Below, one piece after another: positions 41,193-64,000 of a stretch of 64,000 nucleotides of DNA. The stretch spans positions 1,056,001-1,120,000 of the forward strand of contig OY970192.1 in the NCBI GenBank assembly GCA_963708135.1. The letters run 5' to 3'. Numbering within the stretch: the first letter of the stretch is position 1; every line of letters begins with the position of its first letter. The position numbers and the translations under genes are program-made. A model generated the notes under the pieces. It made no database searches and was not told the origin of the DNA. It worked only from the letters and a program-made list of their open reading frames with translations. The DNA comes from an uncultured Gemmatimonadales bacterium (lineage in GTDB: Bacteria; Gemmatimonadota; Gemmatimonadetes; Longimicrobiales; RSA9).

Positions 41193-41785
41193 CAAACTGG
41201 ACGCTGGAGCAGTGTGTCCGGGACGAATGCGGCGATGAGGCGGCCGGGGCCGTGGACGCCGTGGACGAGGGTGCCCGCGATGTCGGCGGACTTGCTGGGG
41301 CCGCTGTGCAGGGCAAGGGCGGCGCCGCGGTCGGAGCTGGTGAGGGCCAGGGCCTCGGCCAGCGTGGGGACCAGGAGCGAGTCCGGAACCAGGACGAGGT
41401 GGGTCGGCGCGAGCAGCTGGAGGCGGCGGCCTTCGCGGCTGTCGAGGAGGAGCGACCCGGTCTCGGCCACGGCGCAGCGGGCGAGGGAGATGGCGAGGTC
41501 GGCGCGCTCCGGCGGCGCCGGCTCGAGCGGGGGCCGCAGCGCCGGGGGCACGGCGGCGGCGATGGCGGCGGTGCGGCACCCGGGCGCGAGGCGGGCGGCG
41601 AGGGCCGCGGCCTCCTCGGCGGTCGCCGCGCGGACCACCTCGCCCCCGGCGGCGGTGAAGCGCGCGGCGAAGGCGGCGCGGGCATCGTCGCCCGACAGGG
41701 CATCGGCGCCGAGCGGGCCCGGGTGGGGCACGGGCGAGTGCGCGCGGGCGGCCTCGCGGACGCGAGCGAGGATGTGGTCCCTCAC
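41192..41785 (-). CDS. lutC: Lactate utilization protein C (LUD domain)
   Basis: AVAETGSL, GRRLQLLAPTH, SGPSKSADI, GVHGP. Confidence 0.85.
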   Translation of the reverse strand: MRDHILARVREAARAHSPVPHPGPLGADALSGDDARAAFAARFTAAGGEVVRAATAEEAAALAARLAPGCRTAAIAAAVPPALRPPLEPAPPERADLAISLARCAVAETGSLLLDSREGRRLQLLAPTHLVLVPDSLLVPTLAEALALTSSDRGAALALHSGPSKSADIAGTLVHGVHGPGRLIAAFVPDTLLQRPV

Positions 41786-45999: not shown

Positions 46000-46714
46000 G
46001 CGGCGCTCCCGGCCCGCGCGCGCCAGAGGGCGCTCGCCAGGTGCAGCACGGGCGGCCCGCCGCCACGTCGCGCGATGCGGCCGCCGAGCTGGAGCAGGCA
46101 GCCGCCGTCGGCGGAGACGAGCACGTCCACGGGCGGCAGCGTGTCCAGCTTGCGGTCGGCCATGGCCGCCGAGACCTCCGGCAGCTTGACGGCGAAGAGG
46201 CCGCCGAAGCCGCAGCACTCACGGTCCGCCTCCCAGTCGACCACCGTCGCGCCGGCGGCGCGCAGCAGCACGGGCGCCTCGTCCGCGAGGCCGAGCTCGC
46301 GCAGGGCGTGGCAGCCATGGTGGTAGGCCAGCGTGGTGCCGGCGAGGCCGCTGCCGAGGCGCTCCACGCCGAGCACCTTCACGAGGAACTCCGCCAGCTC
46401 CCAGGTGCGGCCGGCGAGCTCCGTCCAGGGCGACGTCGCCCCCCGAGCTCCGGATAGAAGCAACGCACCATCGCCGCGCAGCTGCCCGACGGCAGCACCA
46501 CGTGATCCGCGCCGTCGAAGACGCGGCGTGTGTGCTCGGCCATGCGCAGCGCCTCTTCGCGGTAGCCCGCGTTGTAGGCCGGCTGCCCGCAGCAGGTCTG
46601 GTCGGGCGGGAAGGCCACATCGACGTCCAGCGAGCGGAGCAGCCGGACGGCGTCCGCCACCGCGTCCGCGAAGAACTGGTCGCCCAGACAGGTGGCGAAG
46701 AGCGCGACCCTCAT
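45996..46714 (-). CDS. lutA: Lactate utilization protein A (CCG-domain Fe-S protein), frameshifted at a 6-nt homopolymer (46439-46444)
   Basis: VALFATC, QTCCGQPAYNAG, PSGSC, YHHGCH, CCGFGGLF, DGGCL. Confidence 0.85.
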
Positions 46715-46814
46715 CGGGACGCCGTCGCTCGCATCATCGGCCGCCGGGGGAGGGGGGAACGATCGGAGGAGAGTACCGGGTGCCGGAGCGGGGCCGCAAG
46801 AGGCGGAAAGGACA

Positions 46815-46846
46815 CCGGCCGGCAGGTCACGACACCTGCCGGCCGG
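46815..46846 (-). terminator. Hairpin, probable terminator
   Basis: 13-bp perfect stem CCGGCCGGCAGGT/ACCTGCCGGCCGG, followed by TGTCCTTT on the minus strand. Confidence 0.6.
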
Positions 46847-46889
46847 CTGTGGGATTGTAGGCGGGATTGGGTGGTGGGGTCCTCCGGCG

Positions 46890-47273
46890 TCAGGCCGTGC
46901 TGGCCAGCGCCGCGTAGTCTCCATCATCGAGCTGGAGGTGCACCCAGCGGCCCGTGCTGCCGCACTCCGGGCAATACACGTAGCTCGAGTCCAGCACCTG
47001 CAGGTCGGTCAGCCGGCCGCACGCATCACAGCCGCCGCGGAACGTCGGCCAACCTTCCTCCCTCATGCCGCTGCGCGCGAGGCGCACCGCCATGAGGATC
47101 TTCTTCTGCCCCAGCATCGGACAGAGCTCACCCGTGCAGCGCTCGCCGTAGTCCAGGCACACCAGCACCGGGCCGTCCGGCAGGTTCGCGTGCCCCTCGT
47201 GAGCGTGGTCCTCCGTCCAGGCGACACGAACCTTCTGGTCGCGCGCGGAACAGTACGCGAGTGTCGTCTCCAT
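46890..47273 (-). CDS. Small Cys-rich putative double metal-binding protein
   Basis: GGAGG SD; eight Cys including CDAC and CPEC. Confidence 0.65.
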   Translation of the reverse strand: METTLAYCSARDQKVRVAWTEDHAHEGHANLPDGPVLVCLDYGERCTGELCPMLGQKKILMAVRLARSGMREEGWPTFRGGCDACGRLTDLQVLDSSYVYCPECGSTGRWVHLQLDDGDYAALASTA

Positions 47274-47733
47274 CGATGCCCTCCAGGGATGTGTCCGGCG
47301 TCGCAGCCCGTACGGGCCCCGTCGTGCCCTTCGGCAACGTCCGGGCCGGATCCCGCGGCCGTCCCGCCAGGCGACGGATTCGCCGCGCCGGCGCGGTCGA
47401 TTCCCCCGATTCCGGCGCCGCGCGGCGGTGTCCCGGCGGGCGGGGGAGAGGGACAGGGCGCGACTTCGACGCGGCGGCGGTCGGACTGTTTGTCCCGTCT
47501 TCTCGACAGGGCCGCGCGGGGGCCGCGGGGCTCGGGGTTCGCGGCCTGGTGCGCGGAAGCAACGGGTCGTGTGGGGAGTTCGACGACAGCGTGCGCGGGC
47601 AATCCCCCGATGGTTTCCACCAACGCCTTACGCCATCGGGCGGTAGCTCGGCCTAGGTTCGGATTCAAGCGTACTGCCGGCCTCACCGGCCCGGGACCGC
47701 GGCCGGCGCCATCCGTCCACGTGGGGGCCACAC

Positions 47734-49671
47734 ATGGCGACAAGGCTTCAGGAAGAACCCGTCGCGCGAGAGCGTCGGGATGAGAAAGGGCGCGGCGCGC
47801 CAGGGCTGGAGCGGCGCGGCGAGCACACGGTCGAGATCGTCTCCGACTCGGGCGAAGGGGCGCAGAAGGCGGCGCAGATCTTCGGCGCGGTGTCGGCGAA
47901 GATGGGCAACGGCGTGTGGACCGTGGAGATCATCCCGGCGGAGATCCAGCCGCCGCCGCGGGAGCCTGCCGGGGCGAGCGGGAATCGGATCCGTCTCGGG
48001 TCGCGGGAGGTGACGAACTGGGGGGACGAGACGAACCTGGTCATCGCCTTCAACGAGCAGGTGCTGCTGAACCGGCACGAGCTCGGGGCGCTGGCGGAGG
48101 ACGCGGTGCTGCTGGTCGAGAACATGTGGGCGGCGCATCCGGACGAGGACATCCGGCGGCAGTGGCAGCGGGCGATGCGGCAGCTCGCGGGGCGCCGCTA
48201 CCGGGTGGTCGAGGTGCCGATGGAGGAGCAGTGCCTGACGGTCGTGGACAACGCGCGGAAGGGCAAGAACATGTTCGCGCTGGGGATCCTGTCCTGGATC
48301 TATGACCGCGACCTGGAGCTCGTGCGCGAGCAGATCGCCTACACGTTCCGGAAGAAGTCGCAGGAGGTCTACGACAAGAACGTCGCGCTCCTGGAGCTGG
48401 GGGTGCGCTGGGCGAGCGAGCACCTGGACTTCCGCATCGAGGTGCCGCCGACGCCGTCCACCACGCCGAAGGTGGTGATGAACGGCAACCAGGCGCTGGC
48501 GCTGGGCGGGATCGCGGCCGGGATGGAGCTGGCGGCGATGTACCCGATCACGCCGGCCACGTCGGTCTCGCACCACCTGGGCGAGGTGTTCGACTCGTAC
48601 GGCGGCGTGCTGCACCAGGCGGAGGACGAGATCGCGGCGATCGGCGTCGCGATCGGCGCCTCGTACGCGGGCAAGTGTGCCTTCACGATCACGTCGGGAC
48701 CGGGGCTCGCGCTGAAGACGGAGTTCCTCGGGCTCGCCACGATGATCGAGGTGCCGCTGGTGCTGGTGGACGTGCAGCGCGGCGGGCCGAGCACGGGGCT
48801 GCCCACGAAGGTCGAGCAGTCGGACCTGCTGGCGGTGCTGTACGGCCAGCCGGGCGACGCGCCGAAGGTGGTGCTCGCGCCGGCCACGATCGAGGAGTGC
48901 TTCCACGCGATGATCACGGCGCGGCGGATCGCCGATGCGTTCCGCACGCCGGTGATCGTGCTCTCCGATGCCAACCTCGCCACGGGCGTGCAGCCGTTCC
49001 CGCGGCCGAAGCCGGAGCCGCACTGGTTCGCGCCGCCCATGGACCAGAGTCCGGTGGCGGAGGGGAAGCGGCCGTACGACTGGGACGAGCGGACGGGGCT
49101 GGCGGAGCGCTTCATCCCGGGGCGGCCGGGCGGCATGCACACGCTGACCGGGCTCGTGCACGACGAGCGAGGCCGCGTCACCTACGACCAGCGGATGTAC
49201 CAGCACAGCTCGGACATGCGGGCGCGCAAGATCGCCGTGCTCCAGTCGATGCTGGAGCCGCCGGTCGTGAACGGCGATGAGGAAGGCGGCGACCTGCTGC
49301 TGGTGGGCTGGGGCAGCACGAAGGGCGCGATCGAGGAGGCGGTCGAGCGCGCGCGTGGCGAGGGGCTCTCGGTCTCCTCGACGCACCTGACCTTCCTCTC
49401 GCCGCTCCAGCCGGGGCTGAAGCAGATCTTCAGCCGGTTCCGCAAGGTGATGACGGTCGAGATCAACTACAGCGACGACCCGGCCGCGCCCTACGTGACC
49501 GAGGAGAACCGCCGGCGCGGGCAGCTGTCGATGCTGCTGCGCTCGGCCACCCTTGTGGACGTGGACTGCTGGACGCGCGTGCTCGGCGAGCCGCTGCGGC
49601 CCGGCGTGCTGGTCGAGGTGATCAAGAGCAACGTCAGTCGGGCGGGCGCCGCCCGGGGAGGTGCCGCGTGA
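47734..49671 (+). CDS. 2-oxoacid:ferredoxin oxidoreductase alpha subunit (gamma-alpha fusion)
   Basis: DSGEG, NGNQA, YPITPAT, QAEDEIAA, TSGPG, QRGGPSTGLPT, GWGST. Confidence 0.93.
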   Translation: MATRLQEEPVARERRDEKGRGAPGLERRGEHTVEIVSDSGEGAQKAAQIFGAVSAKMGNGVWTVEIIPAEIQPPPREPAGASGNRIRLGSREVTNWGDETNLVIAFNEQVLLNRHELGALAEDAVLLVENMWAAHPDEDIRRQWQRAMRQLAGRRYRVVEVPMEEQCLTVVDNARKGKNMFALGILSWIYDRDLELVREQIAYTFRKKSQEVYDKNVALLELGVRWASEHLDFRIEVPPTPSTTPKVVMNGNQALALGGIAAGMELAAMYPITPATSVSHHLGEVFDSYGGVLHQAEDEIAAIGVAIGASYAGKCAFTITSGPGLALKTEFLGLATMIEVPLVLVDVQRGGPSTGLPTKVEQSDLLAVLYGQPGDAPKVVLAPATIEECFHAMITARRIADAFRTPVIVLSDANLATGVQPFPRPKPEPHWFAPPMDQSPVAEGKRPYDWDERTGLAERFIPGRPGGMHTLTGLVHDERGRVTYDQRMYQHSSDMRARKIAVLQSMLEPPVVNGDEEGGDLLLVGWGSTKGAIEEAVERARGEGLSVSSTHLTFLSPLQPGLKQIFSRFRKVMTVEINYSDDPAAPYVTEENRRRGQLSMLLRSATLVDVDCWTRVLGEPLRPGVLVEVIKSNVSRAGAARGGAA

Positions 49672-50621
49672 GCTCCGCCTGCTCGCTCCTGGCCTTCGCG
49701 GCCGAGGACGACGACCGCGTCCTCGACCTTCACGACTACGAGGGCCCCGTGGCCCGCTGGTGCCCGGGGTGCGGGGACCACTCGGTGCTGACGGCCATGC
49801 AGAAGCTGCTCACGGCCGAGCAGCTGCTGCCCGAGACGACGGTCTTCGTGTCCGGGATCGGCTGCTCGAGCCGATTCCCGCACTACATGCACACCTACGG
49901 CTTCCACGGCATCCACGGGCGCGCGCTGCCGGTGGCCACGGGCGTCAAGCTCTCGCGCCCCGAACTGGACGTGTTCGTCGTCATGGGCGATGGCGATTGC
50001 ACCAGCATCGGCGCCGCGCACTGGCTGCACGCCATCCGCTACAACGTGGACATGACGGCGCTGCTGCTGGACAACAACATCTACGGGCTGACCAAGAAGC
50101 AGACCTCGCCCACCACGCCGCAGGGCTTCCCGAGCAACACGCAGCCGAAGGGCAGCTACCTGCCGCCGCTCAACCCGCTCGAGGCGACGCTGGGCGTGAC
50201 CAATGCCTCGTTCGTGGCGCAGACCGCCGAGTGGATCCCGTCGCACCTGTACGCGACGATCCGCGCGGCCTACCACCACAAGGGGTTCTCGTTCGTCCGC
50301 ATTCTCCAGCGCTGCCCGCAGTTCACCGACTCGCTGTTCAGGGAGGCGGTGCGGAAGCCGGCGCTCGTGGAGCTGCTCGTCCACGACGACGGCGTCATCG
50401 TGCCCGACCTGGACAGGGTCTACGAGAACCAGCTGCCGCACGACCCGAGCGACCTGGACGCGGCGAGGCGGCTGGCGGAGGCCTCCGATCGCATCCGGCT
50501 CGGCGTCTTCTACAGGAACGAGAGCCGGCCCCGCTACGACGAGATCCGCACCCTGCCGAGGCACACGGTGGAGGACAAGATCCGGATCATGAACGAGGAG
50601 CTCGACCGCTATGCCGTCTGA
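49668..50621 (+). CDS. 2-oxoacid:ferredoxin oxidoreductase beta subunit
   Basis: WCPGCG, SGIGCSSR, HGRALP, GDGD, NNIYGLTK. Confidence 0.93.
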   Translation: MSSACSLLAFAAEDDDRVLDLHDYEGPVARWCPGCGDHSVLTAMQKLLTAEQLLPETTVFVSGIGCSSRFPHYMHTYGFHGIHGRALPVATGVKLSRPELDVFVVMGDGDCTSIGAAHWLHAIRYNVDMTALLLDNNIYGLTKKQTSPTTPQGFPSNTQPKGSYLPPLNPLEATLGVTNASFVAQTAEWIPSHLYATIRAAYHHKGFSFVRILQRCPQFTDSLFREAVRKPALVELLVHDDGVIVPDLDRVYENQLPHDPSDLDAARRLAEASDRIRLGVFYRNESRPRYDEIRTLPRHTVEDKIRIMNEELDRYAV

Positions 50622-51615
50622 CGATCGGAGCCAGCAGGCACTGCGCGCGGTGGACGGAGCGCGCCGGACGTTCCACTCCGCCGTCGCCGCGGCCGTCGAC
50701 GAGGTGGATGCCTTCCTCGACGCGCACGCGCTCCCGGCCGGCGACGGTGCCGGCCGGGCCGGCGCGGAGCTCGGTCCCTTCGCGGCGGGCCGCATCGACG
50801 CGGCGCGCTTCGGCGCGCTGTTCGGCGGCGGCGTGGCCCTCGAGCCGGTTGCGCTCGAGACGGTGCGCCGGGCGCGCGCGGTGCTGGACGAGATCGCGGC
50901 CGGCAAGGACTCGCTCTTCCTGGCCAGCGTGCCGTCCGGCGGCGACCTGGGCGCCACGGCCGTGGCCGCGCTCGGCCGCGCCGGCCGCGCGTTCGGCGCG
51001 GGCCACGTGGTCGAGCTGATCCGCTCCGGCCGCTACCGCGCGGAGGCGCACGACCACTTCCTCGAGGTCTACCCACCCGAGCTCTGGAACCGGGCCGAGC
51101 GCGAGGTGGCGCCGCCGCTGGTGGTCGAGGTGGACGGCTCGGACCTGCACGTATGCGCCCTGGCCGACCTGCTGCAGGGGCAGCAGAAGCTGGTGCTGGT
51201 GGTGCGCGGCTCCTGTCCGCCCGCGCCTCTGGTGCGGGCCATCACTCCGCGCGTGCTGGTGCTGCAGGTGACGGAGCCGGGTGGCCTGGCGTCGCTGGCC
51301 GCGAGCGACGGGCCGGGCGTGGCGGCGCTGGTGCCGGAGGGCGCCGCGCGGTTCGCCCACGCCCCGCAGGCCGGCGCCTGTCTGGCGGACCGGCTCCAGG
51401 TGGCCAGCCTGCCGGAGCCGCCGCGCACGCCGCTCGCGCGCTACACGGTCTTCCAGCAGGCGGAGGAGCTCGCGCAGCTCGCCGCGCTCGCGACGGAGGC
51501 GGTGCGGCCGGCGGACGCTGCGGCTCCGGCCGCTGCCGAGGGTGGCGAGTTCACGACGGCGGACAAGCTGGCCGCGTGGCTGCTCCGGCACGCCAACCTT
51601 CCGGACCCGGCCTGA
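50611..51615 (+). CDS. Hypothetical protein in the OFOR-Rnf operon
   Basis: Overlaps the beta-subunit stop, has native codon usage, and shows no motif I recognise. Confidence 0.7.
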   Translation: MPSDDRSQQALRAVDGARRTFHSAVAAAVDEVDAFLDAHALPAGDGAGRAGAELGPFAAGRIDAARFGALFGGGVALEPVALETVRRARAVLDEIAAGKDSLFLASVPSGGDLGATAVAALGRAGRAFGAGHVVELIRSGRYRAEAHDHFLEVYPPELWNRAEREVAPPLVVEVDGSDLHVCALADLLQGQQKLVLVVRGSCPPAPLVRAITPRVLVLQVTEPGGLASLAASDGPGVAALVPEGAARFAHAPQAGACLADRLQVASLPEPPRTPLARYTVFQQAEELAQLAALATEAVRPADAAAPAAAEGGEFTTADKLAAWLLRHANLPDPA

Positions 51616-51628
51616 GAGGGGCGGCGGC

Positions 51629-52471
51629 ATGGGCGTGATCCTCGGCTCGGTCGCGATCCTGGGCGGCGTGGGGGTGATCTTCGGGATCCTCATCGCGCTC
51701 GCCAACAAGAAGCTGCGCGTGTGGGAGGACCCGCGCGTGGACGGCGTGGCCGATCTGCTGCCCAACAACAACTGCGGTGCCTGCGGCTTCGCGGGCTGCC
51801 GCGCGTTCGCGGAGGCGGTGGTCCGCGGCGAGACGGCGCCGGCGCAGTGCACGGTCATGAACGACGACCAGCGCGGCGACGTGGCCGCCTACCTGGGCGT
51901 CGATGCGGGCCAGGCGACGAAGCGGGTCGCGCGGCTGCTGTGCGCGGGCGGCGACGACGTCGCCATCCGGAAGGCGGAGTACCGCGGCATCGAGAGCTGC
52001 GCCGCCGCGGTGGCGGTGACGGGCGGCGGCAAGGGGTGCGCCTGGGGGTGCGTCGGCTATGCCGACTGCGCCGTGGCGTGCGACTTCGACGCCATCCTCA
52101 TGAGCGACACCGGGCTGCCGGTGGTGGACGTCGAGAAGTGCACCGCCTGCGGCGACTGCGTCGATGCATGCCCGCTGGACCTCTTCACCATCCTGCCGCT
52201 GGACGCCCACCTGCTGGTGCAGTGCAGGAGCCTGCTGGAGGGCGAGGCGGCCACGGACGTGTGCAGCGTCGCGTGCAACGCGTGCGGCCGCTGCGCCGCG
52301 GACGCGCCCGGGCTGATCACGATGCGGCGCGGCCTGGCCGTGATCGACTACGACCGCATCGAGCTGCAGAGCAGAAAGGCCATAGGGCGCTGCCCGACCG
52401 GCGCCATCGCGTGGGTCGAGGGCGCGCAATTCACCATGCAGCTTCCCGCGTCAGGGAGCGGAGTGTCATGA
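51629..52471 (+). CDS. rnfB: Rnf complex subunit B
   Basis: N-terminal TM, LPNNNCGACGFAGC, several CxxCxxCxxxC motifs. Confidence 0.92.
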   Translation: MGVILGSVAILGGVGVIFGILIALANKKLRVWEDPRVDGVADLLPNNNCGACGFAGCRAFAEAVVRGETAPAQCTVMNDDQRGDVAAYLGVDAGQATKRVARLLCAGGDDVAIRKAEYRGIESCAAAVAVTGGGKGCAWGCVGYADCAVACDFDAILMSDTGLPVVDVEKCTACGDCVDACPLDLFTILPLDAHLLVQCRSLLEGEAATDVCSVACNACGRCAADAPGLITMRRGLAVIDYDRIELQSRKAIGRCPTGAIAWVEGAQFTMQLPASGSGVS

Positions 52472-55400
52472 GCAGCCGCAAGCAGGCGGAGCCGGAGCGC
52501 CCCGGACCGAAGTACCCGGGGCAGCCGGAGGCGATGGACGGCAGCGCGGCCGTCGTCGAGATGGAGACCGCGGCCAGCGAGGCGGCGGGCGCCTACCCGA
52601 TCACACCCTCGACACAGATGGGCGAGGGCTGGGCGCTGGCCGTGGCGGGCGGCAAGACCAACGTGAACGGCCGCCGGCTGCTCTTCTTCGAGCCGGAGGG
52701 CGAGCACGCGGCGGCGGCGGTCACGGCCGGGATGAGCATGGTCGGGCTGCGGGCCACCAACTTCTCGAGCGGGCAGGGCATCGCCTACATGCACGAGTCG
52801 CTCTACGCGGCCGTCGGCAAGCGCCTGACCTACGTGCTGAACGTGGCCGCGCGCGCCATGACCAAGCACGCGCTCAACGTGCACGCCGGCCACGACGACT
52901 ACCACGCCGTGGACGACACCGGCTTCTTCCAGCTGTTCGCCAAGGACGTGCAGGAGGCGGCCGACCTGAACCTGATCGCGCACCGCGTGGCCGAGCTGGC
53001 GCTGAACCCGGGGCTCGTGGCGCAGGACGGCTTCCTCACCAGCCACGTGATCGAGTCGATCCGGCTGCCCGAGCGCGCGCTGATCAAGGAGTACCTGGGC
53101 GACCCCGCGGACATGGTGGAGTCCCCGACGCCCGCGCAGCGCCTGGTGTTCGGCGAGACGCGCCGGCGCATCCCGGAGATGTTCGATCTGGACTACCCGT
53201 CCATGATCGGCGTCGTGCAGAACCAGGACGCCTACGCGCAGGGCGTGGCCGCCCAGCGGCCCTTCTACTTCGACCACGTGGCCGAGCTCACCGACCGCGC
53301 CATGCGCGAGTACGCCGAGCTCACCGGCCGCACCTACGCCCGCGCCACCGGCTACCGCATGCAGGACGCCGAGTGGGTCATCTGCGGCCAGGGCTCCGTG
53401 GTGCCCAACGCCGAGGCCGTGGCCGACTGGCTGCGCGAGAACCGCGGCCTCAGGGTCGGCGTGCTCAACCTCACCATGTTCCGCCCGTTCCCGGCCGACC
53501 TGGTCACGCACCTGCTGCGTGGCAAGAAGGGCGTCACCGTCCTCGAGCGCGTGGACCAGCCGCTGGCCGTCGATCCGCCGCTGCTGCGCGAGATCCGCGC
53601 GGCCATGACGCAAGCGCTCGAGAACGGCCGCGCCGTCGCCGCGAACGGTAACCGCGCGGCGGGGCGAGCCACCACGAGCGGGCATTCCGGCATGGCGTTC
53701 GGATGGGGACGGGGCCGCGCCGAAGCGGCCACGAACGGCGACGCCGCCGCCCCACCGATGCCGTACCCGAAGCTCGCCGCCGCCCTTCCCGACGAGTTGC
53801 CGGACTTCTTCTCCGGCGGCTTCGGCTTCGGCAGCCGCGACCTGCAGCCAGGCGACATCGTTGCGGCCGTGGAGAACATGGTGCCGCAGGCGCAAGCGCA
53901 AGGGCAAGCGCAAGCGCAAGCGCACGCGCAAGCGCACGCGCGAGCGCACGCCCAAAACCAAAACCAAAACCAAAACCAAAACCCGGAGCGGCGCGGGGCC
54001 GGGCGGAGGCAGCGCCAGTTCTACCTCGGGATCGACTTCATCCGCAAGGGCACGAAGCTGCCCAAGCTGCAGCTGTGGCAGGAGCAGCTGCTGGAGGGCT
54101 ACCCGCACCTGGCGGAGCTGGCGCTCGAGTCGGCAGGCGACCTCAACCTGCACCCGGAGGGCTCCGTCTCGCTGCGCATCCACTCGGTGGGCGGCTGGGG
54201 CGCGATCACGACCGGGAAGAACCTGGCGCTCACGGCGTACGAGCTGGCCGGGCTCAACATCAAGGCCAACCCGAAGTACGGCTCGGAAAAGAAGGGACAG
54301 CCGACCACCTTCTACGCCACGCTCTCGCACCAGTCCCTCAGGATCAACGCGGAGCTGAAGCACGTCGATGTGGTACTGAGCCCGGACCCGAACGTGTTCC
54401 GCCACTCCAACCCGCTGGCGGGGCTGGCCGAGGGCGGCGTGTTCGTGATCCAGAGCGACCAGACGCCGGAGCAGGTGTGGGCGTCACTGCCGGCCACGGC
54501 GCAGGTGGACATCATCGAGAAGAAGCTGGCCGTCTACGCGCTGGACGGCTTCAGCATCGCGGGGGAGGAGGCCTCGGATCCCGAGCTCCGCTACCGCATG
54601 CAGGGCGCCGCCTTCATGGGCGCCTTCTTCGCCGCCTCGCCGCTGGCGGCGCGCGAGGGGCTGGACGAGGCCCGGCTGTTCGAGGGGATCGAGGCGCAGC
54701 TCGAGAAAAAGTTCGGCAAGCTGGGCAAGCGCGTGGTGGACGACAACCTGCGCGTGATCCGGCGCGGCTACGAGGAGATGCGGAAGGTGCCGGTCGGGGC
54801 GGTGAGCGACGAGGTGTCCTCCGCGCTGGCCACGGCGAACGTGCCGGCGCTCATGGACGTGATCGGCGCGGCCGAGGGGCCGGGCAACCCGGGCCGCTTC
54901 TGGGAGCAGGTCTGCTCGATCTACGCCAGCGGCGGCGACGGCATCGCGGACCCGTTCGCGGCGATCAGCGCGGTTCCGGCGGCCAGCAGCACGTTCCGCG
55001 ACATGACCAACATCCGCTTCGAGGTGCCCGAGTTCATCGCCTCGAAGTGCACGGGCTGCGCGCAGTGCTGGACGCAGTGCCCCGACGCGGCGATCCCGGG
55101 GCTGGTCAACACGCCGGAGGAGATCCTGGACGCGGCGATCCGGACGGCGCAGAACGGCCGCTCCTTCGACCGGTTGCGCCAGGTCTCGAAGCACATCGCG
55201 AAGGAAGCGAACAAGGTGATGCAGGGCGTGCCCTTCACCACCTTCGGCGACGTGCTCTCCGCCGCCTACCAGAACGTGGCCGGGAAGCTCGGCTGGGAGG
55301 CCGACCGGCGCGCCGAGCTGGACGAGGAGTTCGCCGCCGTGTTCCCGCGCATCGCCGAGCTGCCGCTGGCGAAGACGGCGCCGTTCTTCGACGTGCCGGA

Positions 55401-57816: not shown

Positions 57817-57826
57817 GCGGAGAGAG

Positions 57827-59284
57827 ATGAAGCTGACGTTCCGCCACGGGGTTCACCCCCCGGAATCGAAGGAGCTGACGGAGCACGTGCCGTTGCGGCG
57901 CCTGCCGTTCGCGGCGGAGCTCGTGCTCCCGCTCCGGCAGCACGCGGGAAAGCCGGCCGTCCCGCTCGTGAAGGTCGGGGACCACGTGCAGCGGGGCGAC
58001 CGGATCGCCGAGGCCGACGGCTTCGTCTCCTCGCCCGTGCACGCCTCGGCGGCCGGCGTGGTGAAGTCGATCGGCTGGTGGCCGCACCCGGACGGGACCA
58101 TGGCGGAGGCGATCCGGATCGCGGTGGACCGCTACTCGCCCCACATCCCGCGGCCGCGCATGGTGCCGCACTGGGAGGGGCTCTCGGCCGCGCAGGTGGT
58201 GAAGGCCGTGCAGGACGCGGGCGTGGTCGGCCTCGGCGGCGCCGCCTTCCCGACGCACGTCAAGCTCTCGCCGCCGAAGGACGCGAAGATCCACACCCTG
58301 ATCGTGAACGGCGCCGAGTGCGAGCCGTACCTGACCACGGACCACCGGACCATGGTCGAGTACCCGGAGCGCGTGCACTTCGGCGTGCGCATCATGATGA
58401 AGGCGCTCGGCGTCGCGCGAGCCGTAATCGGCGTCGAGATGAACAAGCCGGACGCCATCGAGCGGCTGCGCGCCACCCGGCCCGGGGACCTCGACGTCAC
58501 GATCCTGCCGCTCACGGTGAAATATCCGCAGGGCGCCGAGAAGATGCTGATCGAGGTGGTCACCGGGAAGCGGGTGCCGTCCGGCAGGCTGCCGCTGCAC
58601 GTGGGCGTGGTGGTGCAGAACGTCGGCTCGATCGCCACCATCGCGGAGGTCTTCGAGACCGGGCTGCCGCTGGTCGAGCGGATCGTCACCATATCGGGCC
58701 ATGGCGTGCGCCGCCCCTCCAATCTGATCGTGCCCGTCGGCACGAAGATCCGCGATGCGCTCGAGTTCTGCGGCGGGCTCAGGGAGGACGCGAGCGAGAT
58801 CGTGTTCGGCGGCCCGATGATGGGCACCTCGCAGCCGGACCTCGATACGCCGATCATCAAGGGCACCACCGGCGTGATCGTGCTCAGGCACGCCGACACG
58901 CCGCGCCGCGAGACGCTGCCCTGCATCCGCTGCGGCCGCTGCCTCGACGCCTGCCCCGTCTTCCTGAACCCCTCGCAGCTCGGGCTGCTCGCGCAGGCCG
59001 GCCGCTACGAGGACATGGAGGCGCTGCACCTGGCCGACTGCATGCTGTGCGGCTCCTGCTCCTACGTCTGCCCGTCGAGCATCCCGCTCAGCCAGATGTT
59101 CTCGCTGGGCAGGACGGCGCTGCGGAAGCTGAAGGCGGCGGAAGCCGCGAAGGCGAAGGCGGAGGCCGCGGCCCGCGGGGCGGCGGAGGGCGGCGTCGCC
59201 GCCAGCGGGCCCGGCGGCGCGGCGGCCGGTGCATCGGCCCCGGCCGGCGGCGCGGCCGCGCGGAAGGAGGCGGTGCCCGCATGA
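57827..59284 (+). CDS. rnfC: Rnf complex subunit C
   Basis: GVHP, QHAG, GLGGAAFPT, NGAECEPYLT, KYPQGAEK, GGPMMG, CIRCGRC, CMLCGSC. Confidence 0.95.
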   Translation: MKLTFRHGVHPPESKELTEHVPLRRLPFAAELVLPLRQHAGKPAVPLVKVGDHVQRGDRIAEADGFVSSPVHASAAGVVKSIGWWPHPDGTMAEAIRIAVDRYSPHIPRPRMVPHWEGLSAAQVVKAVQDAGVVGLGGAAFPTHVKLSPPKDAKIHTLIVNGAECEPYLTTDHRTMVEYPERVHFGVRIMMKALGVARAVIGVEMNKPDAIERLRATRPGDLDVTILPLTVKYPQGAEKMLIEVVTGKRVPSGRLPLHVGVVVQNVGSIATIAEVFETGLPLVERIVTISGHGVRRPSNLIVPVGTKIRDALEFCGGLREDASEIVFGGPMMGTSQPDLDTPIIKGTTGVIVLRHADTPRRETLPCIRCGRCLDACPVFLNPSQLGLLAQAGRYEDMEALHLADCMLCGSCSYVCPSSIPLSQMFSLGRTALRKLKAAEAAKAKAEAAARGAAEGGVAASGPGGAAAGASAPAGGAAARKEAVPA

Positions 59285-59310
59285 GACACCCTGTGTCAAC
59301 CCCCCTGTGT

Positions 59311-60558
59311 TCAAGCAGCCGCCGCGGTGGGTTCCGCGGGGGTGAAGAAGGGGATAGCCCGTCCGTGTCGGGAGGGGTCGTAGGTGGACCGATTGTGCCA
59401 GCAGCGCCACAGCACGCGGACCCAGGCTCGGGCGAGGATTCGGATTGCGTGCGGGTGATCGCAGCCGCGGGCACGGGCGCACTTGTAGACGGCGGCGGCC
59501 CAGGGGTGGGCATGGCGGGAGTTGTCCGCCCAGGTGGTGAGGGCTTGTCGCAGGCGCTTGTTGCAGGCGAAGCGGCAGGCGACGCCGCGATGCTTGCCGG
59601 AGCTGTGCGTAACGGGGGCGACGCCGGCTTCGGCGGCGAGCTGGGCGTCGGTGGCGAAGCGGAGCCGGTCGTCGCCGAGCTCGGCGAGAATCTGGGCGGC
59701 ATTGATGGTGCCGGTGCGGGGGAAGGACTTCAGGATCTCACCGTCGGGATGCTGCGCGAGGTGAGCGGCGATGAGCCCGTCGAGCTCGCGGATCTGAGCC
59801 ACGAGAGGGCGGAGGACGGCGACCAGGGAACGGACGAGCTGACCTTTGGTCTCGCTCTCGAGCTCGGCGGCCTGCCCTGCGGGGGCGGAGCGGAGCCGCT
59901 CGAGGAGCTGATCGACCGGCCGGCGGCCGCAGTAGGCAGTGCGCTTGAGGAATCGTTCGAGGCGCTTGGGCCCGAGGCGGGCGGCGCTCTCCGGGGTGGG
60001 GTAGGCGTCCAGGAAATCGAGGGCGATCGGGCTATCGACATCGGCGAAAATGGCGGCAGCGCCGGCCCAGAAGCTGTCGAGCAGGCTGCGGAGCTGATTG
60101 GCGAGCTGGACGCGGGTCGCGACCAGGTCATCGCGGGTGCGAACGGCGGCGCGAAGCGCCTTGGTGCGATCGGAGGGGACCCGGAGCGGCCGGAATCGAT
60201 GCCCATCGGTACGCAGGACGTCGGCGAGGATGTAGGCATCACCGGGATCGCTCTTCCCCGGAGCCGCGGCGTAGCGGGGCCGGGTGGCCTTGAGGGCGTT
60301 CGGGTGGATCGGAACGACCGGGAAGCCGGCCTCGACCAACGTATCCACCAGAAGTCCGGACGGCCGCTCGATGGCGATGGGCAGCTGCGCCGGAGAGCTG
60401 ACGCGACGCAGGCGCCGGATCAGCTCACTCAGCCCACCGGCCGTGTGAGGGATGGTGAACGCGTCAACGAGGGCGCCGCTCAGATCGAGCACACAGACGT
60501 CATGCTTGTCGCTGGCCCAGTCAATTCCGACGAGGTAGCTTGGATCCAGTCCTTCCAC
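59311..60558 (-). CDS. IS110 DEDD recombinase
   Basis: GIDW, AIE, KSDPGDA (DEDD); C-terminal AGVAPVTHSSG with the catalytic Ser. Confidence 0.95.
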   Translation of the reverse strand: MEGLDPSYLVGIDWASDKHDVCVLDLSGALVDAFTIPHTAGGLSELIRRLRRVSSPAQLPIAIERPSGLLVDTLVEAGFPVVPIHPNALKATRPRYAAAPGKSDPGDAYILADVLRTDGHRFRPLRVPSDRTKALRAAVRTRDDLVATRVQLANQLRSLLDSFWAGAAAIFADVDSPIALDFLDAYPTPESAARLGPKRLERFLKRTAYCGRRPVDQLLERLRSAPAGQAAELESETKGQLVRSLVAVLRPLVAQIRELDGLIAAHLAQHPDGEILKSFPRTGTINAAQILAELGDDRLRFATDAQLAAEAGVAPVTHSSGKHRGVACRFACNKRLRQALTTWADNSRHAHPWAAAVYKCARARGCDHPHAIRILARAWVRVLWRCWHNRSTYDPSRHGRAIPFFTPAEPTAAAA

Positions 60559-60589
60559 GCCTCACCTCCGAGCAGAGATTCACTCCCTC

Positions 60590-60765
60590 GCTCCGGCGTT
60601 GGAAGGTCTCACCGATCGCTCACTGAAAGGCGCTCTCGGCTTCAGGTGCCGTGGCGCTACACCCTGTGGTCGGTTGGGGCCTTCCACGCCGGGCAGGGGA
60701 GCGGGTCTCATGCGGGCCGTCGAGCGGCAAGCGACGCTGGCTCTCCCTACCCGGACGCCGAAGCA
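60590..60765 (-). ncRNA. Putative bridge RNA of the IS110 element (ends approximate)
   Basis: Two stem-enclosed internal loops whose guides match the target flanks and the donor junction (see findings). Confidence 0.8.
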
Positions 60766-60815
60766 CTTCTCTTGAGCGGCGCGAATCTACGCCCCGCTGA
60801 GGGTAAGGTGCACCA

Positions 60816-61829
60816 GTGAGCGAGCTCGACGCGGGCCGCCTCCAGATCGCGGCCTCGCCCCACATCCAGGCGGCCGACAGCACCGAGCGGATCATGTGGA
60901 CGGTGGTGGCCACGCTCGTGCCGATCGTGGGCGCCTCCTTCTGGTTCTTCGGCCTGGGCGCGCTGCTCGTCATCGCCAGCGCGACGCTCGGCGCCATGGC
61001 CACCGAGCGCGCGTTCGGCCGGCCGCGCGCGCTCCGCGACGGCTCCGCCGCCATCACCGGGCTGCTCCTCGGGCTCACGCTGCCGCCGGGATTCCCGCTG
61101 TGGATGGCGGCGATCGGCGGCGCCTTCGCGATCGGGCTGGGCAAGCTGATCTTCGGCGGGCTGGGGCAGAACGTCTTCAATCCCGCGCTGCTCGGGCGCG
61201 CGTTCCTGCAGGCGGCGTTCCCCACGGCCATCACCACCTGGCCCACGGTCGGGCAGGGATGGACCACGCTCTACCCGTCCAACTTCGCGTTCCCCTTCGT
61301 GCAGGCGGCGCCCGACGCGGTCACCGCCGCCACGCCGCTCGGGCTCATGAAGTTCGAGCACCACATGACGGACGTGCTGCCCATGATCACCGGCCATACC
61401 GGCGGCTCGCTCGGCGAGACGGCGGGTGCCCTGATTCTCATATGCGGCGCCTACCTGGCCTGGAAGCGCTACCTCGACTGGCGCATCCCGACGAGCATCA
61501 TCCTCACCGTGGCCGGGCTGAGCGCGCTGCTGCACCTGTTCGGCGGCGAGCGCTTCCCGACCGCCGGCTTCATGCTCTTCTCCGGCGGGCTCATGCTCGG
61601 CGCCGTCTACATGGCCACCGACATGGTCACCTCGCCCACCACGCCGAAGGGGGCCTGGATCTTCGGCTTCGGCATCGGCGCGCTCGTCGTGCTGATCCGG
61701 ATCTGGGGCGGGCTGCCGGAGGGCGTCATGTACGCGATCCTGCTCATGAACGCGCTGGTGCCGTTCCTGAACCGCTGGACGCAGCCGCGCGTGTTCGGTA
61801 CGCCGGGTCGGAAGGAGGCCGCAGCGTGA
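60816..61829 (+). CDS. rnfD: Rnf complex subunit D
   Basis: SPH, FGGLGQNVFNPA, AATPL, GGSLGET, MATD, EGVMYAIL; polytopic membrane protein. Confidence 0.95.
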   Translation: MSELDAGRLQIAASPHIQAADSTERIMWTVVATLVPIVGASFWFFGLGALLVIASATLGAMATERAFGRPRALRDGSAAITGLLLGLTLPPGFPLWMAAIGGAFAIGLGKLIFGGLGQNVFNPALLGRAFLQAAFPTAITTWPTVGQGWTTLYPSNFAFPFVQAAPDAVTAATPLGLMKFEHHMTDVLPMITGHTGGSLGETAGALILICGAYLAWKRYLDWRIPTSIILTVAGLSALLHLFGGERFPTAGFMLFSGGLMLGAVYMATDMVTSPTTPKGAWIFGFGIGALVVLIRIWGGLPEGVMYAILLMNALVPFLNRWTQPRVFGTPGRKEAAA

Positions 61830-62524
61830 GCGCCGACTGTCACACCCCGCCGACCCCGCCGTCCGAGGGGGCGCCGCCGCCCGACGCGCCGCGGCCGCCC
61901 GAGGTCTCCTCGCTGCGGCTGGTGGGGACGCTCGCCTTCTTCGGCGCCATCGCCGGGTTCCTCATCGTGCTGGTCTTCCAGTGGACCAGGCCGCGCATCG
62001 ACGCGCACAAGGCGCTGGTGCTCCGGCAGGCCGCGCTCGAGGTGCTGGGCGAGCCGCAGCAGATGAAGAGCATCTTCGTCTACCAGGGCAGGCTGGTCGA
62101 TGCGCTGCCCGCCGGCGTGGACTCCCCCGGGCTCGACCGCCTCTACCTCGGCCTCGACGCCGGCGGGCGGCCGGTCGGCTACGCCATCGAGGCGCGCGGC
62201 ACCGGCTTCCAGGACGTGATCGATCTGATCTTCGGCTACGACGCGCACACGAAGAAGCTGCTCGGGATGAAGGTGCTGGAGAGCAAGGAGACGCCGGGGC
62301 TCGGGGAGAAGATCGAGTCGGACTCCTCCTTCGTCGCCGGCTTCAGGGGCCCGACGGGCCCGATCGTCGGGGTCAAGAAGGGACAGGAGAAGGGCGATCC
62401 GCACGAGGTCGACATGATCACCGGGGCGACGATCTCGTCGCGGGCCGTGATCGGCATCATTGACGCGCGGCTGGCCGAGGTCACGCCGCTGCTGGACGCC
62501 TACACCCCGGGAGGCCGCCGATGA
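61826..62524 (+). CDS. rnfG: Rnf complex subunit G
   Basis: TM segment, ETPGLG, FMN-attachment motif ITGATISS. Confidence 0.92.
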   Translation: MSADCHTPPTPPSEGAPPPDAPRPPEVSSLRLVGTLAFFGAIAGFLIVLVFQWTRPRIDAHKALVLRQAALEVLGEPQQMKSIFVYQGRLVDALPAGVDSPGLDRLYLGLDAGGRPVGYAIEARGTGFQDVIDLIFGYDAHTKKLLGMKVLESKETPGLGEKIESDSSFVAGFRGPTGPIVGVKKGQEKGDPHEVDMITGATISSRAVIGIIDARLAEVTPLLDAYTPGGRR

Positions 62525-63204
62525 GGGCCACCACCCCGCACGAGGACCTGGTGCGCGGGATCTGGAAGGAGAACCCGGTCTTCGTGCAGCTGCTCGGGCT
62601 GTGCCCGACGCTTGCCGTGACCAACACCGTGGCCAACGGGATCGCGATGGGGCTGGCGACCTTCTTCGTGCTGGTCGGCTCCAGCTTCCTCGTCTCGCTG
62701 CTCCGCAAGCTGATCCCGAACGAGGTGCGCATCAGCGCCTACATCCTCATCATCGCGACGTTCGTGACCGTCGTGGACATGACCCTCGAGGCGCTCGTCC
62801 CCGACATCCACAAGGCGCTCGGCGCCTTCATCGCGCTGATCGTGGTCAACTGCATCATCCTCGGACGGCAGGAGGCCTTCGCCGCCAGGAACCGCGTCGG
62901 CCGCTCCGTGCTCGACGCGGTGGGCACCGGCTTCGGCTTCATCATCACGATGCTCATGATGTCGTCGTTCCGCGAGCTGCTCGGCAGCGGCACCCTGCTC
63001 GGCTACCACGTCCTCGGCCACCACTACGAGCCCTGGGTCGTCATGATCCTGCCGCCCGGCGGCTTCTTCACCCTCGGCTTCTGGCTGCTCGCCTTCGGCT
63101 GGTGGAAGGCCCGCAAGCAGGAGAGCGTCAAGCCCCGCCGCTGGCCGCACGGCGTGCTGCCGCCGCGGCCCGCGCGCCGGGAGCGGAAGGAGGTCGTCGC
63201 ATGA
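62521..63204 (+). CDS. rnfE: Rnf complex subunit E
   Basis: ENPVFVQLLGLCPTLAVT, LIVVNC, RELLG, LPPGGF. Confidence 0.95.
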   Translation: MRATTPHEDLVRGIWKENPVFVQLLGLCPTLAVTNTVANGIAMGLATFFVLVGSSFLVSLLRKLIPNEVRISAYILIIATFVTVVDMTLEALVPDIHKALGAFIALIVVNCIILGRQEAFAARNRVGRSVLDAVGTGFGFIITMLMMSSFRELLGSGTLLGYHVLGHHYEPWVVMILPPGGFFTLGFWLLAFGWWKARKQESVKPRRWPHGVLPPRPARRERKEVVA

Positions 63205-63779
63205 TGAAGGACCTGTTCTGGATCTTCATCTCTTCCATGGTGGTGAACAACTTCACCCTGGCGCTGTTCCTCGGGCTGTGCCCGTTCTTCGGGGTGTCGT
63301 CGAAGGTCTCCACCGCCGTCCGCATGGGCGCCGCCGACACGTTCGTGCTGGTGATCACGTCCGTGGCGACGTGGTTCCTCAACCGCTTCATCCTGGCCGA
63401 CGCGCCGTACCTGCGGCTGATCTCCTTCATCGTCGTGATCGCCGCGCTGGTGCAGATCGTCGAGATGATCATCCGCAAGGCGAGCCCCACGCTCTTCCGC
63501 GAGCTCGGCATCTATCTGCCGCTCATCACGACCAACTGCGCGATCCTCGGCCTGGCCATCTTCCAGACCAACCGCGGCTACGGCTTCGCCGAGGGCGTCA
63601 CCTTCGCCGTCGGCTCCGGGCTCGGGCTGACGCTCGCGCTCGTGCTCATGGCCTCGATCCGCGAGCAGGTCGAGCTGGCCGACATCCCCGCCCTCGCCAG
63701 GGGCATGGGCATCGTGCTCATCATCGCCGGCAGCCTCTCGCTCGCCTTCATGGGCTTTGCGGGGCTGTTCAGCTCATGA
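63201..63779 (+). CDS. rnfA: Rnf complex subunit A
   Basis: NNF, FLGLCPF, LGIYLPLITTNC, LAFMGF. Confidence 0.95.
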   Translation: MMKDLFWIFISSMVVNNFTLALFLGLCPFFGVSSKVSTAVRMGAADTFVLVITSVATWFLNRFILADAPYLRLISFIVVIAALVQIVEMIIRKASPTLFRELGIYLPLITTNCAILGLAIFQTNRGYGFAEGVTFAVGSGLGLTLALVLMASIREQVELADIPALARGMGIVLIIAGSLSLAFMGFAGLFSS

Positions 63780-63928
63780 TCGCCTCGATCGTGGGCATCG
63801 CCCTGCTCGCCGCCCTCTTCGCCGTCTTCGGGCTCATCCGCCACAAGCCGGACTGCGCGTCCGGCGCCTGCGGCGCCTGCCCCGCAACCTCGTGCGCACT
63901 GAAGGAGTCCGACCATGACCATGCCTGA
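63776..63928 (+). CDS. 50-aa membrane peptide with a Cys cluster
   Basis: ATGA overlap with rnfA; TM followed by CASGACGACPATSC. Confidence 0.65.
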   Translation: MIASIVGIALLAALFAVFGLIRHKPDCASGACGACPATSCALKESDHDHA

Positions 63929-64000
63929 GGACCGCGACCGCGCTCCCGCCGGCGAGCCTGCTTCCCCGCAGCCCGACCGCGGCGCACCCGTGGACCGCCG
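63915..64000 (+). CDS. Next operon gene, 3' partial, product unknown
   Basis: AAGGAG SD, ATG, frame open to the window end. Confidence 0.45.
   Translation, partial: MTMPEDRDRAPAGEPASPQPDRGAPVDR

Follow-up and report, generated by a model that had tools for sequence, protein, structure and literature searches.

Rnf is usually pictured as a membrane ion pump that trades with a freely diffusing pool of ferredoxin, and in its forward mode RnfB's C-terminal domain is the acceptor of the ferredoxin electrons (PMC12174285, in its account of RnfB). A donor enzyme encoded among the rnf genes themselves is on record for the rnf2 locus of the Solemya velum gill symbiont, where an operon of the rnfBCDGEA order has pyruvate:ferredoxin oxidoreductase (PFOR) genes placed after rnfB2 and before rnfC2, and where the authors propose pyruvate as the electron donor to Rnf (PMC4287430, in its passage on rnf2). 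Here we describe an operon from an uncultured Gemmatimonadales bacterium, located in a stretch of DNA of 64,000 nucleotides (positions 1,056,001 to 1,120,000 of contig OY970192.1, assembly GCA_963708135.1; this whole stretch is called the window throughout), in which the genes of two 2-oxoacid:ferredoxin oxidoreductases (OFORs) are interleaved with a complete set of rnf genes. On balance, we think that the operon specifies a self-contained electron circuit from the two oxidoreductases to the Rnf ion pump, and its make-up suggests a hard-wired route, with the donor enzyme carrying its ferredoxin on a tether, instead of the freely diffusing pool. The component families and the rnfBCDGEA order were already known, and it is their combination here that is new: a literature search, from which the subscription journals were left aside, returned no description of the operon save one sentence in the rnf2 passage of PMC4287430, and no account of a conserved unit of 12–13 genes, of a PFOR subfamily of 1700 aa that bears a ferredoxin on a tether, or of the two small protein families, X and the Cys peptide, that are introduced below.

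Family scans with Pfam and NCBIfam identified positions 47734–64000 of the window as one co-directional string of genes on the + strand, in the order OFOR alpha, OFOR beta, X, rnfB, PFORL, rnfC, an IS110 element, rnfD, rnfG, rnfE, rnfA and a Cys peptide, where X denotes an unknown open reading frame (ORF) of 334 aa and PFORL the PFOR-like gene, and its protein, of 1782 aa. All genes named in the first-pass annotation, which had been made from the letters of the window, were thereby recovered on the + strand: the two OFORs, X, the full Rnf and the Cys peptide. The junctions, read 5' to 3', measure -4, -11, +13, -4, +10, (the insertion), -4, -4, -1 and -4 nt, i.e. with the insertion sequence (IS) discounted the neighbouring genes either overlap by 1–11 nt or sit 10–13 nt apart, and the widest gap of 13 nt agrees with the earlier estimate of about 15 nt. 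The same annotation had described rnfB as detached from rnfA, which over-reads the locus: rnfB at the 5' end corresponds to the known rnfBCDGEA order, and the unusual feature is the PFOR gene between rnfB and rnfC, not the position of rnfB. A further ORF begins at position 63915 (63915..64000, + strand, running past the end of the window; probably apbE, an assignment made by synteny only), hence the operon is incomplete within the window. Since the G+C content of this DNA is about 70–75%, the raw ORF lists are full of spurious frames.

Conservation of the locus was assessed by scanning one genome per species for relatives of PFORL, which yielded at least 528 stretches; the best 80 were kept, each with up to 10 kb of flank, and all counts given here are drawn from these 80 closest loci. 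Neighbours were mapped by tblastn with the window proteins, and each denominator is the number of loci whose contig has room for the gene in question. The 80 loci come mostly from metagenome-assembled genomes (MAGs) of Gemmatimonadota, with a few labelled Acidobacteriota, Planctomycetota, Rokubacteria, Geobacter and Proteobacteria, though such labels of MAGs may be wrong. The same order on the same strand is near-universal: upstream of PFORL the counts are 46/47 for OFOR alpha, 55/58 for OFOR beta, 62/65 for X and 67/69 for RnfB, and downstream 51/51 for RnfC, 46/46 for RnfD, 43/44 each for RnfG and RnfE, and 41/42 for RnfA (in one locus, L004, a scaffold gap of 100 N after rnfD explains missing gene calls). 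The junctions are kept as well. OFOR alpha and beta overlap in 48 of 50 loci, OFOR beta and X by exactly 11 nt in all 58, and rnfC and rnfD by 4 nt in 39 of 41, while the ATGA by which PFORL overlaps rnfB in the window, rightly pointed out in the first-pass annotation, recurs as a 4-nt overlap in 41 of 44. A synteny survey had been named beforehand as the check on the proposed operon, with a gene order that is not conserved counting against it; both order and overlaps turned out to be kept across the 80 loci, and the arrangement is beyond chance. At its 5' border, no gene upstream of OFOR alpha recurs in more than 8 of 43 loci. At the 3' side an ApbE gene follows rnfA in 31 of 41 loci, and in 24 of 41 it is itself followed by a 117-aa ORF with several Cys pairs (e.g. 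L065:10426-10779), whose family matches are weak zinc-ribbon ones alone (E 0.05) and which may be a further member of the operon, located past the end of the window. In a FastTree phylogeny of PFORL, built from the window and the 50 loci with an uninterrupted full-length gene (30 partial or interrupted rows were left out), the window falls inside a Gemmatimonadota clade (starred in the tree). Two loci, L042 and L078, carry a second OFOR alpha/beta pair just upstream, and L031 probably has the short version of the operon that is discussed below for L045 and L049.

PFORL (52468..57816, + strand) is a single-chain PFOR-like 2-oxoacid:ferredoxin oxidoreductase comprising Pfam domains I, II, III, V and VI, with matches to POR_N (aa 36–238), PFOR_II (301–387), POR (575–769), Fer4 (856–1080) and TPP_enzyme_C (1271–1385; TPP, thiamine pyrophosphate), and no match to the domain-IV (EKR) model listed in the Pfam scan. 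The nearest solved structure is the PFOR of Moorella (6cin, E 1e-85), which aligns in five blocks and leaves out insertions at about residues 396–552, 887–982 and 1088–1180 as well as everything after 1424, i.e. a C-terminal extension of ~360 residues relative to the Moorella enzyme. There are more than 120 homologues of near full length (1670–1740 aa), for which NCBI has the name '2-oxoacid:acceptor oxidoreductase family protein' and nothing more specific. In an alignment of 20 sequences (the window and 19 of these homologues) 16 Cys residues in four groups are invariant, 12 of which belong to the core (C861/864/867/871, C997/1000/1003/1007 and C1075/1078/1186/1390) and are allotted by us, after 6cin and 1b0p, to three [4Fe-4S] clusters. 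Together with the invariant residues G1277, D1278, G1279 and N1311, i.e. the GDG motif 1277–1279 and the Asn that follows it, these 12 core Cys make PFORL look catalytically intact. The segments YPITPST and VAARA, which we take to line the substrate pocket of PFOR, align and are conserved in the comparisons with the homologues and with 6cin, and the substrate is probably pyruvate or another small 2-oxoacid. As a peculiarity of the window protein, the first insertion contains Gln-Ala, His-Ala and Gln-Asn dipeptide repeats (~53870–53990, residues ~470–505), which together with other length differences make it ~80 aa longer than its 1670–1740-aa relatives; the run looks like a lineage-specific low-complexity expansion.

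An alignment of 41 C-terminal regions of PFORL revealed a constant order: a conserved structured part, a variable stretch and a highly conserved domain of 80 residues. The variable stretch is rich in Ala, Pro, Gly and Ser, free in both length and sequence, and ends in an acidic patch; among relatives this spacer measures 59–130 aa (median 87). The AlphaFold (AF2) model of the C-terminal region of the window protein (mean pLDDT, the predicted local distance difference test score, 82.6) starts with a confidently predicted beta/alpha domain and a helix of 50 residues, continues into a disordered Ala/Gly/Pro/Ser linker (residues ~1645–1698, nucleotides 57400..57561, + strand; pLDDT <50 at positions 222–275 of the model) and closes with a monocluster ferredoxin domain (residues ~1703–1782, nucleotides 57574..57813, + strand; pLDDT 95–98 at positions 280–359), in which Pfam detects Fer4_13 at 1707–1759. 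The best Foldseek match of this terminal domain is a free-standing protein, ferredoxin I of D. africanus (1fxr, target TM-score 0.84, root-mean-square deviation 0.9 Å), and further matches are the monocluster ferredoxins of Pyrococcus, Bacillus thermoproteolyticus and Thermotoga. Its Cys pattern, C-x2-C-x2-C-x35-C, is identical in all 43 sequences that contain both anchor motifs of the search (8 of the 51 PFORL sequences missed one motif and were left out of this count). Taken together, the Fer4_13 match, the variable linker, the disordered segment of the model, the monocluster fold and the fixed Cys pattern mean that PFORL brings along an electron-carrier ferredoxin of its own, flexibly tethered.

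The second oxidoreductase is of the two-subunit type. OFOR alpha (47734..49671, + strand, 645 aa) resembles KorA of 2-oxoglutarate:ferredoxin oxidoreductases (OGORs) in that a gamma-type domain III is fused ahead of domains I and II (POR 40–224, POR_N 260–485 in Pfam); it scores 524 bits with TIGR03710 (cut-off 482.75), and its nearest solved chain is that of the Magnetococcus OGOR (6n2n_A, E 1e-81). OFOR beta (49668..50621, + strand, 317 aa; Pfam TPP_enzyme_C and PFO_beta_C) supplies the TPP (PP) domain and one [4Fe-4S] site, with C32, C35, C66, C216, the GDGD motif 107–110 and N136 invariant over 52 sequences; it is closest to the solved chains 5b48_B and 6n2n_B and scores 239.2 with TIGR02177, under the cut-off of 261.9. 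By domain layout and motifs, the pair can be assigned to the two-subunit 2-oxoacid:acceptor oxidoreductases (TIGR03710, KorAB/OGOR).

The set of Rnf subunits is complete. RnfB (51629..52471, + strand, 280 aa, with the true start at the ATG at 51629) has an N-terminal transmembrane (TM) helix followed by a long poly-[4Fe-4S] cytoplasmic part (Pfam FeS and Fer4), in which 20 Cys are invariant over 52 sequences; it scores 72.7 with TIGR01944 (cut-off 68.7), and its best models are those of long RnfB proteins (NF005504, rnfB_Methano, PRK07118), which classifies it as the long poly-cluster type. The remaining five subunits, all on the + strand, are RnfC (57827..59284, 485 aa; TIGR01945 522.6 vs 245.95; RnfC_N, Complex1_51K, SLBB and Fer4), RnfD (60816..61829, 337 aa, GTG start; TIGR01946 317 vs 207), RnfG (61826..62524, 232 aa; FMN_bind E 2.7e-14, TIGR01947 99.7 vs 102), RnfE (62521..63204, 227 aa; TIGR01948 240.2 vs 213.4) and RnfA (63204..63779, 191 aa; TIGR01943 233.2 vs 229.3). 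Thus five of the six pass the curated cut-offs and RnfG falls short by 2 bits, and all six subunits of an RnfABCDGE-type complex are encoded together. RnfG (TGAT, 199–202) and RnfD (DAVTAAT) exhibit motifs of the flavinylation type, which we take to be the sites of covalent flavin attachment, and the putative flavin transferase gene, of which the first 86 nt alone are visible, stands at the end of the window; motifs and transferase are both those expected of a flavinylated Rnf.

X (50611..51615, + strand) overlaps the stop of OFOR beta by 11 nt and matched no family in the Pfam and NCBIfam scans. It is a real gene family: a profile search collected 664 representatives at 50% identity (E<=1e-3; 929 clusters at 90%), all of them ~335 aa long, unnamed or 'hypothetical' and devoid of Pfam domains. 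The AF2 model is confident (pLDDT 91.4) apart from a flexible linker of low confidence near the C-terminus, which is followed by a short conserved helix with the invariant W323. Since no Cys is conserved, X is not considered an Fe-S protein. Profile comparison with hhalign aligned residues 120–271 of X with residues 1222–1440 of PFORL (probability 54.6%, E 1.2e-4), with the GDG motif and the NTGGQ loop absent from X; the best Foldseek matches, though weak, are PFOR and the beta subunit of oxalate oxidoreductase (E 7e-3 to 5e-2, TM-score 0.22–0.28); and the X profile matches residues 183–548 of P0392 (hhalign probability 96.1%), an 858-aa protein of Planctomycetota named 'ferredoxin', which runs on into a tail like that of PFORL and a ferredoxin domain with 53% identity to the one in PFORL. 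These three matches suggest that X derives from the TPP (PP) domain of PFORL and is likely, if not proven, to be a cofactor-less relative of domain VI; the caution in this wording comes from the lack of similarity of X to OFOR beta and to sequences in the PDB. The idea that X is a copy of the neighbouring OFOR beta was discarded, as the profile comparison of the two gave a probability of 0.6%, and the best score in a search of the ESM Atlas with X was 0.78, under the useful range. X and OFOR beta are both present in 55 loci and both missing in three (L045, L049 and L066), which assigns X to the OFOR alpha/beta module and not to Rnf or PFORL. A search for longer proteins containing X gave two matches, P0392 and P0391; the latter was rejected as an OFOR-beta–X fusion, because both parts, and the stretch that joins them, contain garbled sequence that is out of frame, which identifies it as a frameshift read-through. 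In addition, P0167 (457 aa) joins X to a PFORL-type tail, though as a singleton on a 3.7-kb contig it is anecdotal. P0392 and P0167, both of them stand-alone proteins with a tethered ferredoxin, suggest a wider family of proteins in which a pseudo-TPP domain is combined with a swinging ferredoxin.

The Cys peptide (63776..63928, + strand) is a membrane peptide of 50 aa in which a single TM helix is accompanied by four conserved Cys, and its gene is joined to rnfA by an ATGA overlap. By a heuristic search, 30 of 42 loci have a similar peptide ORF after rnfA, mostly with the same ATGA overlap; F15 and three of the Cys (C32, C35, C40) are invariant, and the conservation of C27 reaches at least 90%. 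Among 31 members of the peptide family, 14 matched FeoB_associated (PF12669) at E<=0.05, the best with 8.9e-6, and the window's own peptide reached E 0.35 (11.6 bits, under the gathering cut-off of 27); at the same threshold of E<=0.05 Pfam matched none of the 31 to an NqrM family. The peptide shares the design of the FeoB-associated proteins, its membership in PF12669 being unproven. The ApbE proteins of the relatives carry a twin-arginine translocation (TAT) signal and match Pfam ApbE well (E 6e-76 for the representative, L005). According to the parts of PMC12174285 that deal with cofactors, Rnf holds a membrane [2Fe-2S] cluster between RnfA and RnfE, and the equivalent cluster of NQR requires the small membrane protein NqrM, which is encoded with apbE after the structural genes. 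On the analogy of operon position and design, the Cys peptide is a candidate Fe-S maturation factor, the possible Rnf counterpart of NqrM.

The preferred working of the circuit can be outlined as follows. PFORL would oxidise pyruvate or another small 2-oxoacid and relay the electrons, by way of three [4Fe-4S] clusters inside the enzyme, to the ferredoxin domain that it carries; in the window protein this domain sits on a disordered tether of ~55 aa, and it would act as a swinging arm, handing the electrons on to RnfB at its poly-cluster cytoplasmic domain. The KorAB/OGOR-like OFOR, which has no ferredoxin domain of its own, would feed the same acceptor, aided by X. Rnf would reduce NAD+ and export H+ or Na+, so that, in sum, the reactions of the pyruvate and 2-oxoglutarate dehydrogenases would be carried out with ion-motive force gained in addition. 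The Cys peptide and the downstream ApbE would mature the membrane [2Fe-2S] cluster and the covalent flavins of Rnf, respectively, and rnfB would be translationally coupled to the gene of the ferredoxin-bearing enzyme. The analysis shows the identity of the genes, their conserved order and overlaps, the intact cofactor motifs and the tether-plus-ferredoxin architecture; we infer the electron donor/acceptor pairs, what the substrates are, that the flow is oxidative, how X contributes and any docking that is stable. The first-pass annotation had gone as far as a dedicated OFOR–Rnf supercomplex. Its functional part, a dedicated coupling of the OFORs with Rnf, is well supported by the sequence analysis, because PFORL has a tethered ferredoxin and its gene keeps the overlap with rnfB; its physical part is taken up below as a conjecture.

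The operon is interrupted in the window by an IS110-family element (~59285..60815, - strand; transposase 59311–60558), identified by the matches to DEDD_Tnp_IS110 (PF01548, E 2.4e-37), Transposase_20 (PF02371, E 2e-17) and NF033542 (204.7, cut-off 140). Judging by its sequence, the 1.5-kb element has the features of that family, namely the DEDD transposase, Transposase_20 and an upstream non-coding region (257 nt at its 5' side, 60559–60815). The window contains it once, and none of the 80 loci has it. The insertion point is exactly the 4-nt ATGA overlap of rnfC and rnfD, and TGA flanks both ends; rnfD now starts with GTG, and the purine-rich stretch a few bases upstream comes from the end of the IS. 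IS110 elements use a bridge (guide) RNA to target their insertion. About 100 nt inside the 5' region (~60707–60725) there is an 11-mer equal to the left flank plus the core of the insertion site, and adjacent to it an 8-mer equal to the right flank; the region folds with a z-score of -2.49 and matches nothing in Rfam. These strings look like what a bridge RNA programmed for this very site would contain, and a non-coding region of an IS110 element that matches its own insertion site would be a natural example of RNA-guided targeting.

A scan with the sigma-70 consensus alone found no promoter; terminator-like sites numbered 3 vs 4.3 expected, which is uninformative; and nothing in 46000–64000 matched Rfam at E<=0.1. 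On the opposite strand upstream lie genes for an FAD-linked oxidase (FAD_binding_4, FAD-oxidase_C) and a CCG Cys-rich-domain protein (39762–41579 and 46379–46927, both -), a pair that resembles a set of the glycolate/lactate-oxidase type and is not kept beside the operon in relatives. Between 42000 and 44000 the G+C content is lower (0.58–0.63), and the ORFs there have no family matches.

Several of the results weigh against the circuit as outlined. Locus L066 has none of the upstream neighbours of PFORL, rnfB included, and L077 is also without rnfB; in L045 and L049 there is a short 'core' operon, rnfB-PFORL-rnfCDGEA, devoid of OFOR alpha/beta and X and preceded by unrelated genes, and its existence means that the OFOR–X and PFORL–Rnf modules are separable. 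PFORL scores 386.1 bits with the TIGR02176 equivalog, so far below the cut-off of 911.35 that it has to be regarded as a divergent subfamily rather than an ordinary NifJ-type PFOR. The resemblance of X to domain VI is moderate (probability 54.6%, best Foldseek TM-score 0.24–0.28), and the profile of X found nothing below E 1 among the PDB sequences. In this genome the IS110 element parts rnfC from rnfDGEA, whose expression it may lower or abolish. Finally, most Gemmatimonadota are thought to be aerobes, and in aerobes the reverse, gradient-driven reduction of ferredoxin is as plausible as the forward reaction. The occurrence of the modules apart in some loci would also suit a mere co-regulation of soluble enzymes that exchange electrons with Rnf diffusively or transiently, with no supercomplex, in which case the C-terminal ferredoxin of PFORL would be just an extra cluster or serve other acceptors. 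Electron-transfer partners are indeed often encoded together without forming stable complexes, and no genuine case of X, OFOR beta or PFORL fused to an Rnf subunit came to light, P0391 being an artefact and P0167 a singleton. Nevertheless, a linker that is kept but free in sequence, attached to a highly conserved ferredoxin, is the design of a shuttle working near a fixed partner, and the rnfB/PFORL overlap is retained in almost all loci (41/44), which makes co-regulation alone an improbable explanation to our minds.

We give as little credence to the possibility that the system is crippled in this genome, i.e. that a polar effect of the IS110 element leaves rnfDGEA, the Cys peptide and apbE with little expression, in a locus that is decaying. 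This would fit an opposite-strand element of 1.5 kb that lies precisely where rnfC and rnfD are coupled by their overlap in 39 of 41 relatives, and the failure of the sigma-70 consensus scan to find a promoter-like site; yet that scan was limited to this one consensus, the flanking ORFs are all intact and of full length, and rnfD retains a GTG start with the IS-derived purine-rich stretch upstream. A serious rival, even if we still consider it rather unlikely, is the same hardware run in reverse: Rnf, driven by the gradient and NADH, would reduce the tethered ferredoxin, and the two oxidoreductases would act as pyruvate synthase and 2-oxoglutarate synthase, serving a reductive or reversed-oxidative tricarboxylic acid (TCA) cycle or the anaplerotic assimilation of acetyl-CoA and succinyl-CoA. 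It owes its seriousness to the fact that an OGOR-like alpha/beta enzyme and a PFOR-like one are exactly the two types of ferredoxin-dependent carboxylation enzymes. Moreover, Rnf can work in both directions, and aerobes such as Azotobacter use it in reverse (PMC12174285, where it treats the direction of Rnf), OGOR is discussed as a carboxylase beside Rnf in an autotroph (bioRxiv 10.64898/2026.01.22.701106, in its remarks on OGOR), and a tether would presumably shield low-potential electrons from oxygen and other sinks. Against the reverse direction speaks, if weakly, the long poly-cluster type of RnfB, the best models of which come from organisms with a forward Rnf, and the flanks of the operon contain no conserved citrate-cleaving or other CO2-fixation gene. 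The oxidative direction is thus favoured over the reverse, because RnfB is of the long type and because the comment on rnf2 in PMC4287430 reads likewise.

If the forward circuit is correct, the bacterium probably wires the chemistry of pyruvate and 2-oxoglutarate directly to its membrane energy system, and the oxidation of central carbon would yield extra ion-motive force, which is relevant to survival under limitation of energy or oxygen; run backward, the same system would be a respiratory-powered entry point for CO2. The operon is conserved in many genomes of Gemmatimonadota, a phylum widespread in soil and sediment, with hundreds of carriers at the level of species, and it offers three new testable parts: the 1700-aa PFOR subfamily, the unannotated 335-aa family and the candidate Fe-S maturation peptide of Rnf. 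Or perhaps, to push the argument into more doubtful territory, the products form a membrane megacomplex, in which PFORL and OFOR alpha/beta–X dock on RnfB and the swinging-arm ferredoxin makes soluble ferredoxin dispensable? Such an ion-pumping pyruvate/2-oxoglutarate:NAD+ oxidoreductase would replace the dehydrogenase complexes, or fix CO2 in reverse, with X as a pseudo-enzyme adaptor and the Cys peptide as the NqrM of Rnf. It would harvest roughly 100–200 mV that the dehydrogenase complexes waste, or, reversed, would let a phylum seen as aerobic heterotrophs fix CO2 at two ferredoxin-dependent steps with respiratory energy.

Comparison with the known systems shows which of these features are shared. 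The rnf2 operon of the Solemya velum symbiont has PFOR between rnfB and rnfC as well, a likeness drawn from its description, the one sentence on it in PMC4287430 being silent on how long the protein is, on any ferredoxin tail, and on OFOR alpha/beta, X and conservation. With Rnf of the rnfBCDGEA type, as known from the structures of C. tetanomorphum, A. woodii and A. vinelandii (PMC12174285, in its comparison of these complexes), the locus shares the six subunits, the cofactor motifs, rnfB in first position and ApbE downstream, and differs from it in the 5.3-kb PFOR-like gene between rnfB and rnfC, the OFOR alpha/beta–X genes upstream, the TM/4-Cys peptide after rnfA and the absence of RnfH. 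In common with the nqr operons, which encode NqrM and ApbE (PMC12174285, in its lines on NQR maturation), there is a single-helix, four-Cys membrane protein and a flavin transferase after the structural genes; the likeness of the Cys peptide to NqrM is nevertheless one of design and position alone, as its weak sequence match goes to PF12669, and the order here is peptide, then apbE.

OFOR alpha/beta has the same build as the two-subunit OFOR/OGOR enzymes of Magnetococcus marinus (6n2n) and Sulfolobus tokodaii (5b46/5b48), i.e. an alpha subunit of domains III+I+II, a beta subunit with TPP and a single cluster, and no delta subunit, and is set apart from these solved enzymes by being embedded in an rnf operon. 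Mycobacterial KorAB is a further enzyme of this kind, and neither it nor the solved ones are known to have X, which here always trails with an 11-nt overlap. Compared with the homodimeric PFORs of D. africanus (1b0p) and M. thermoacetica (6cin), PFORL keeps to their order of domains (I-II-III-V-VI) and, like them, has the TPP motif and three [4Fe-4S] sites, whereas it is ~550–600 residues longer, has three insertions, scores below the TIGR02176 cut-off and adds at its C-terminus the beta/alpha domain, the long helix, the disordered linker and the ferredoxin domain. In the pyruvate:NADP+ oxidoreductase of Euglena and Cryptosporidium a PFOR core is rigidly fused to a flavoprotein of the NADPH-cytochrome P450-reductase type. 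Both proteins thus join a PFOR core covalently to an electron-accepting module; in PFORL this partner is a small, flexibly tethered ferredoxin, with the NAD+ site residing in a membrane pump. Finally, the 2-oxoacid dehydrogenase complexes use swinging lipoyl arms, in which a small carrier domain on a flexible Ala/Pro-rich linker moves between active sites. The arm of PFORL appears to follow the same design in the service of the same net reaction (2-oxoacid + CoA + NAD+), but its carrier would be an Fe-S domain instead of lipoate, its chemistry the radical chemistry of TPP and Fe-S clusters, and its last step membrane-bound.

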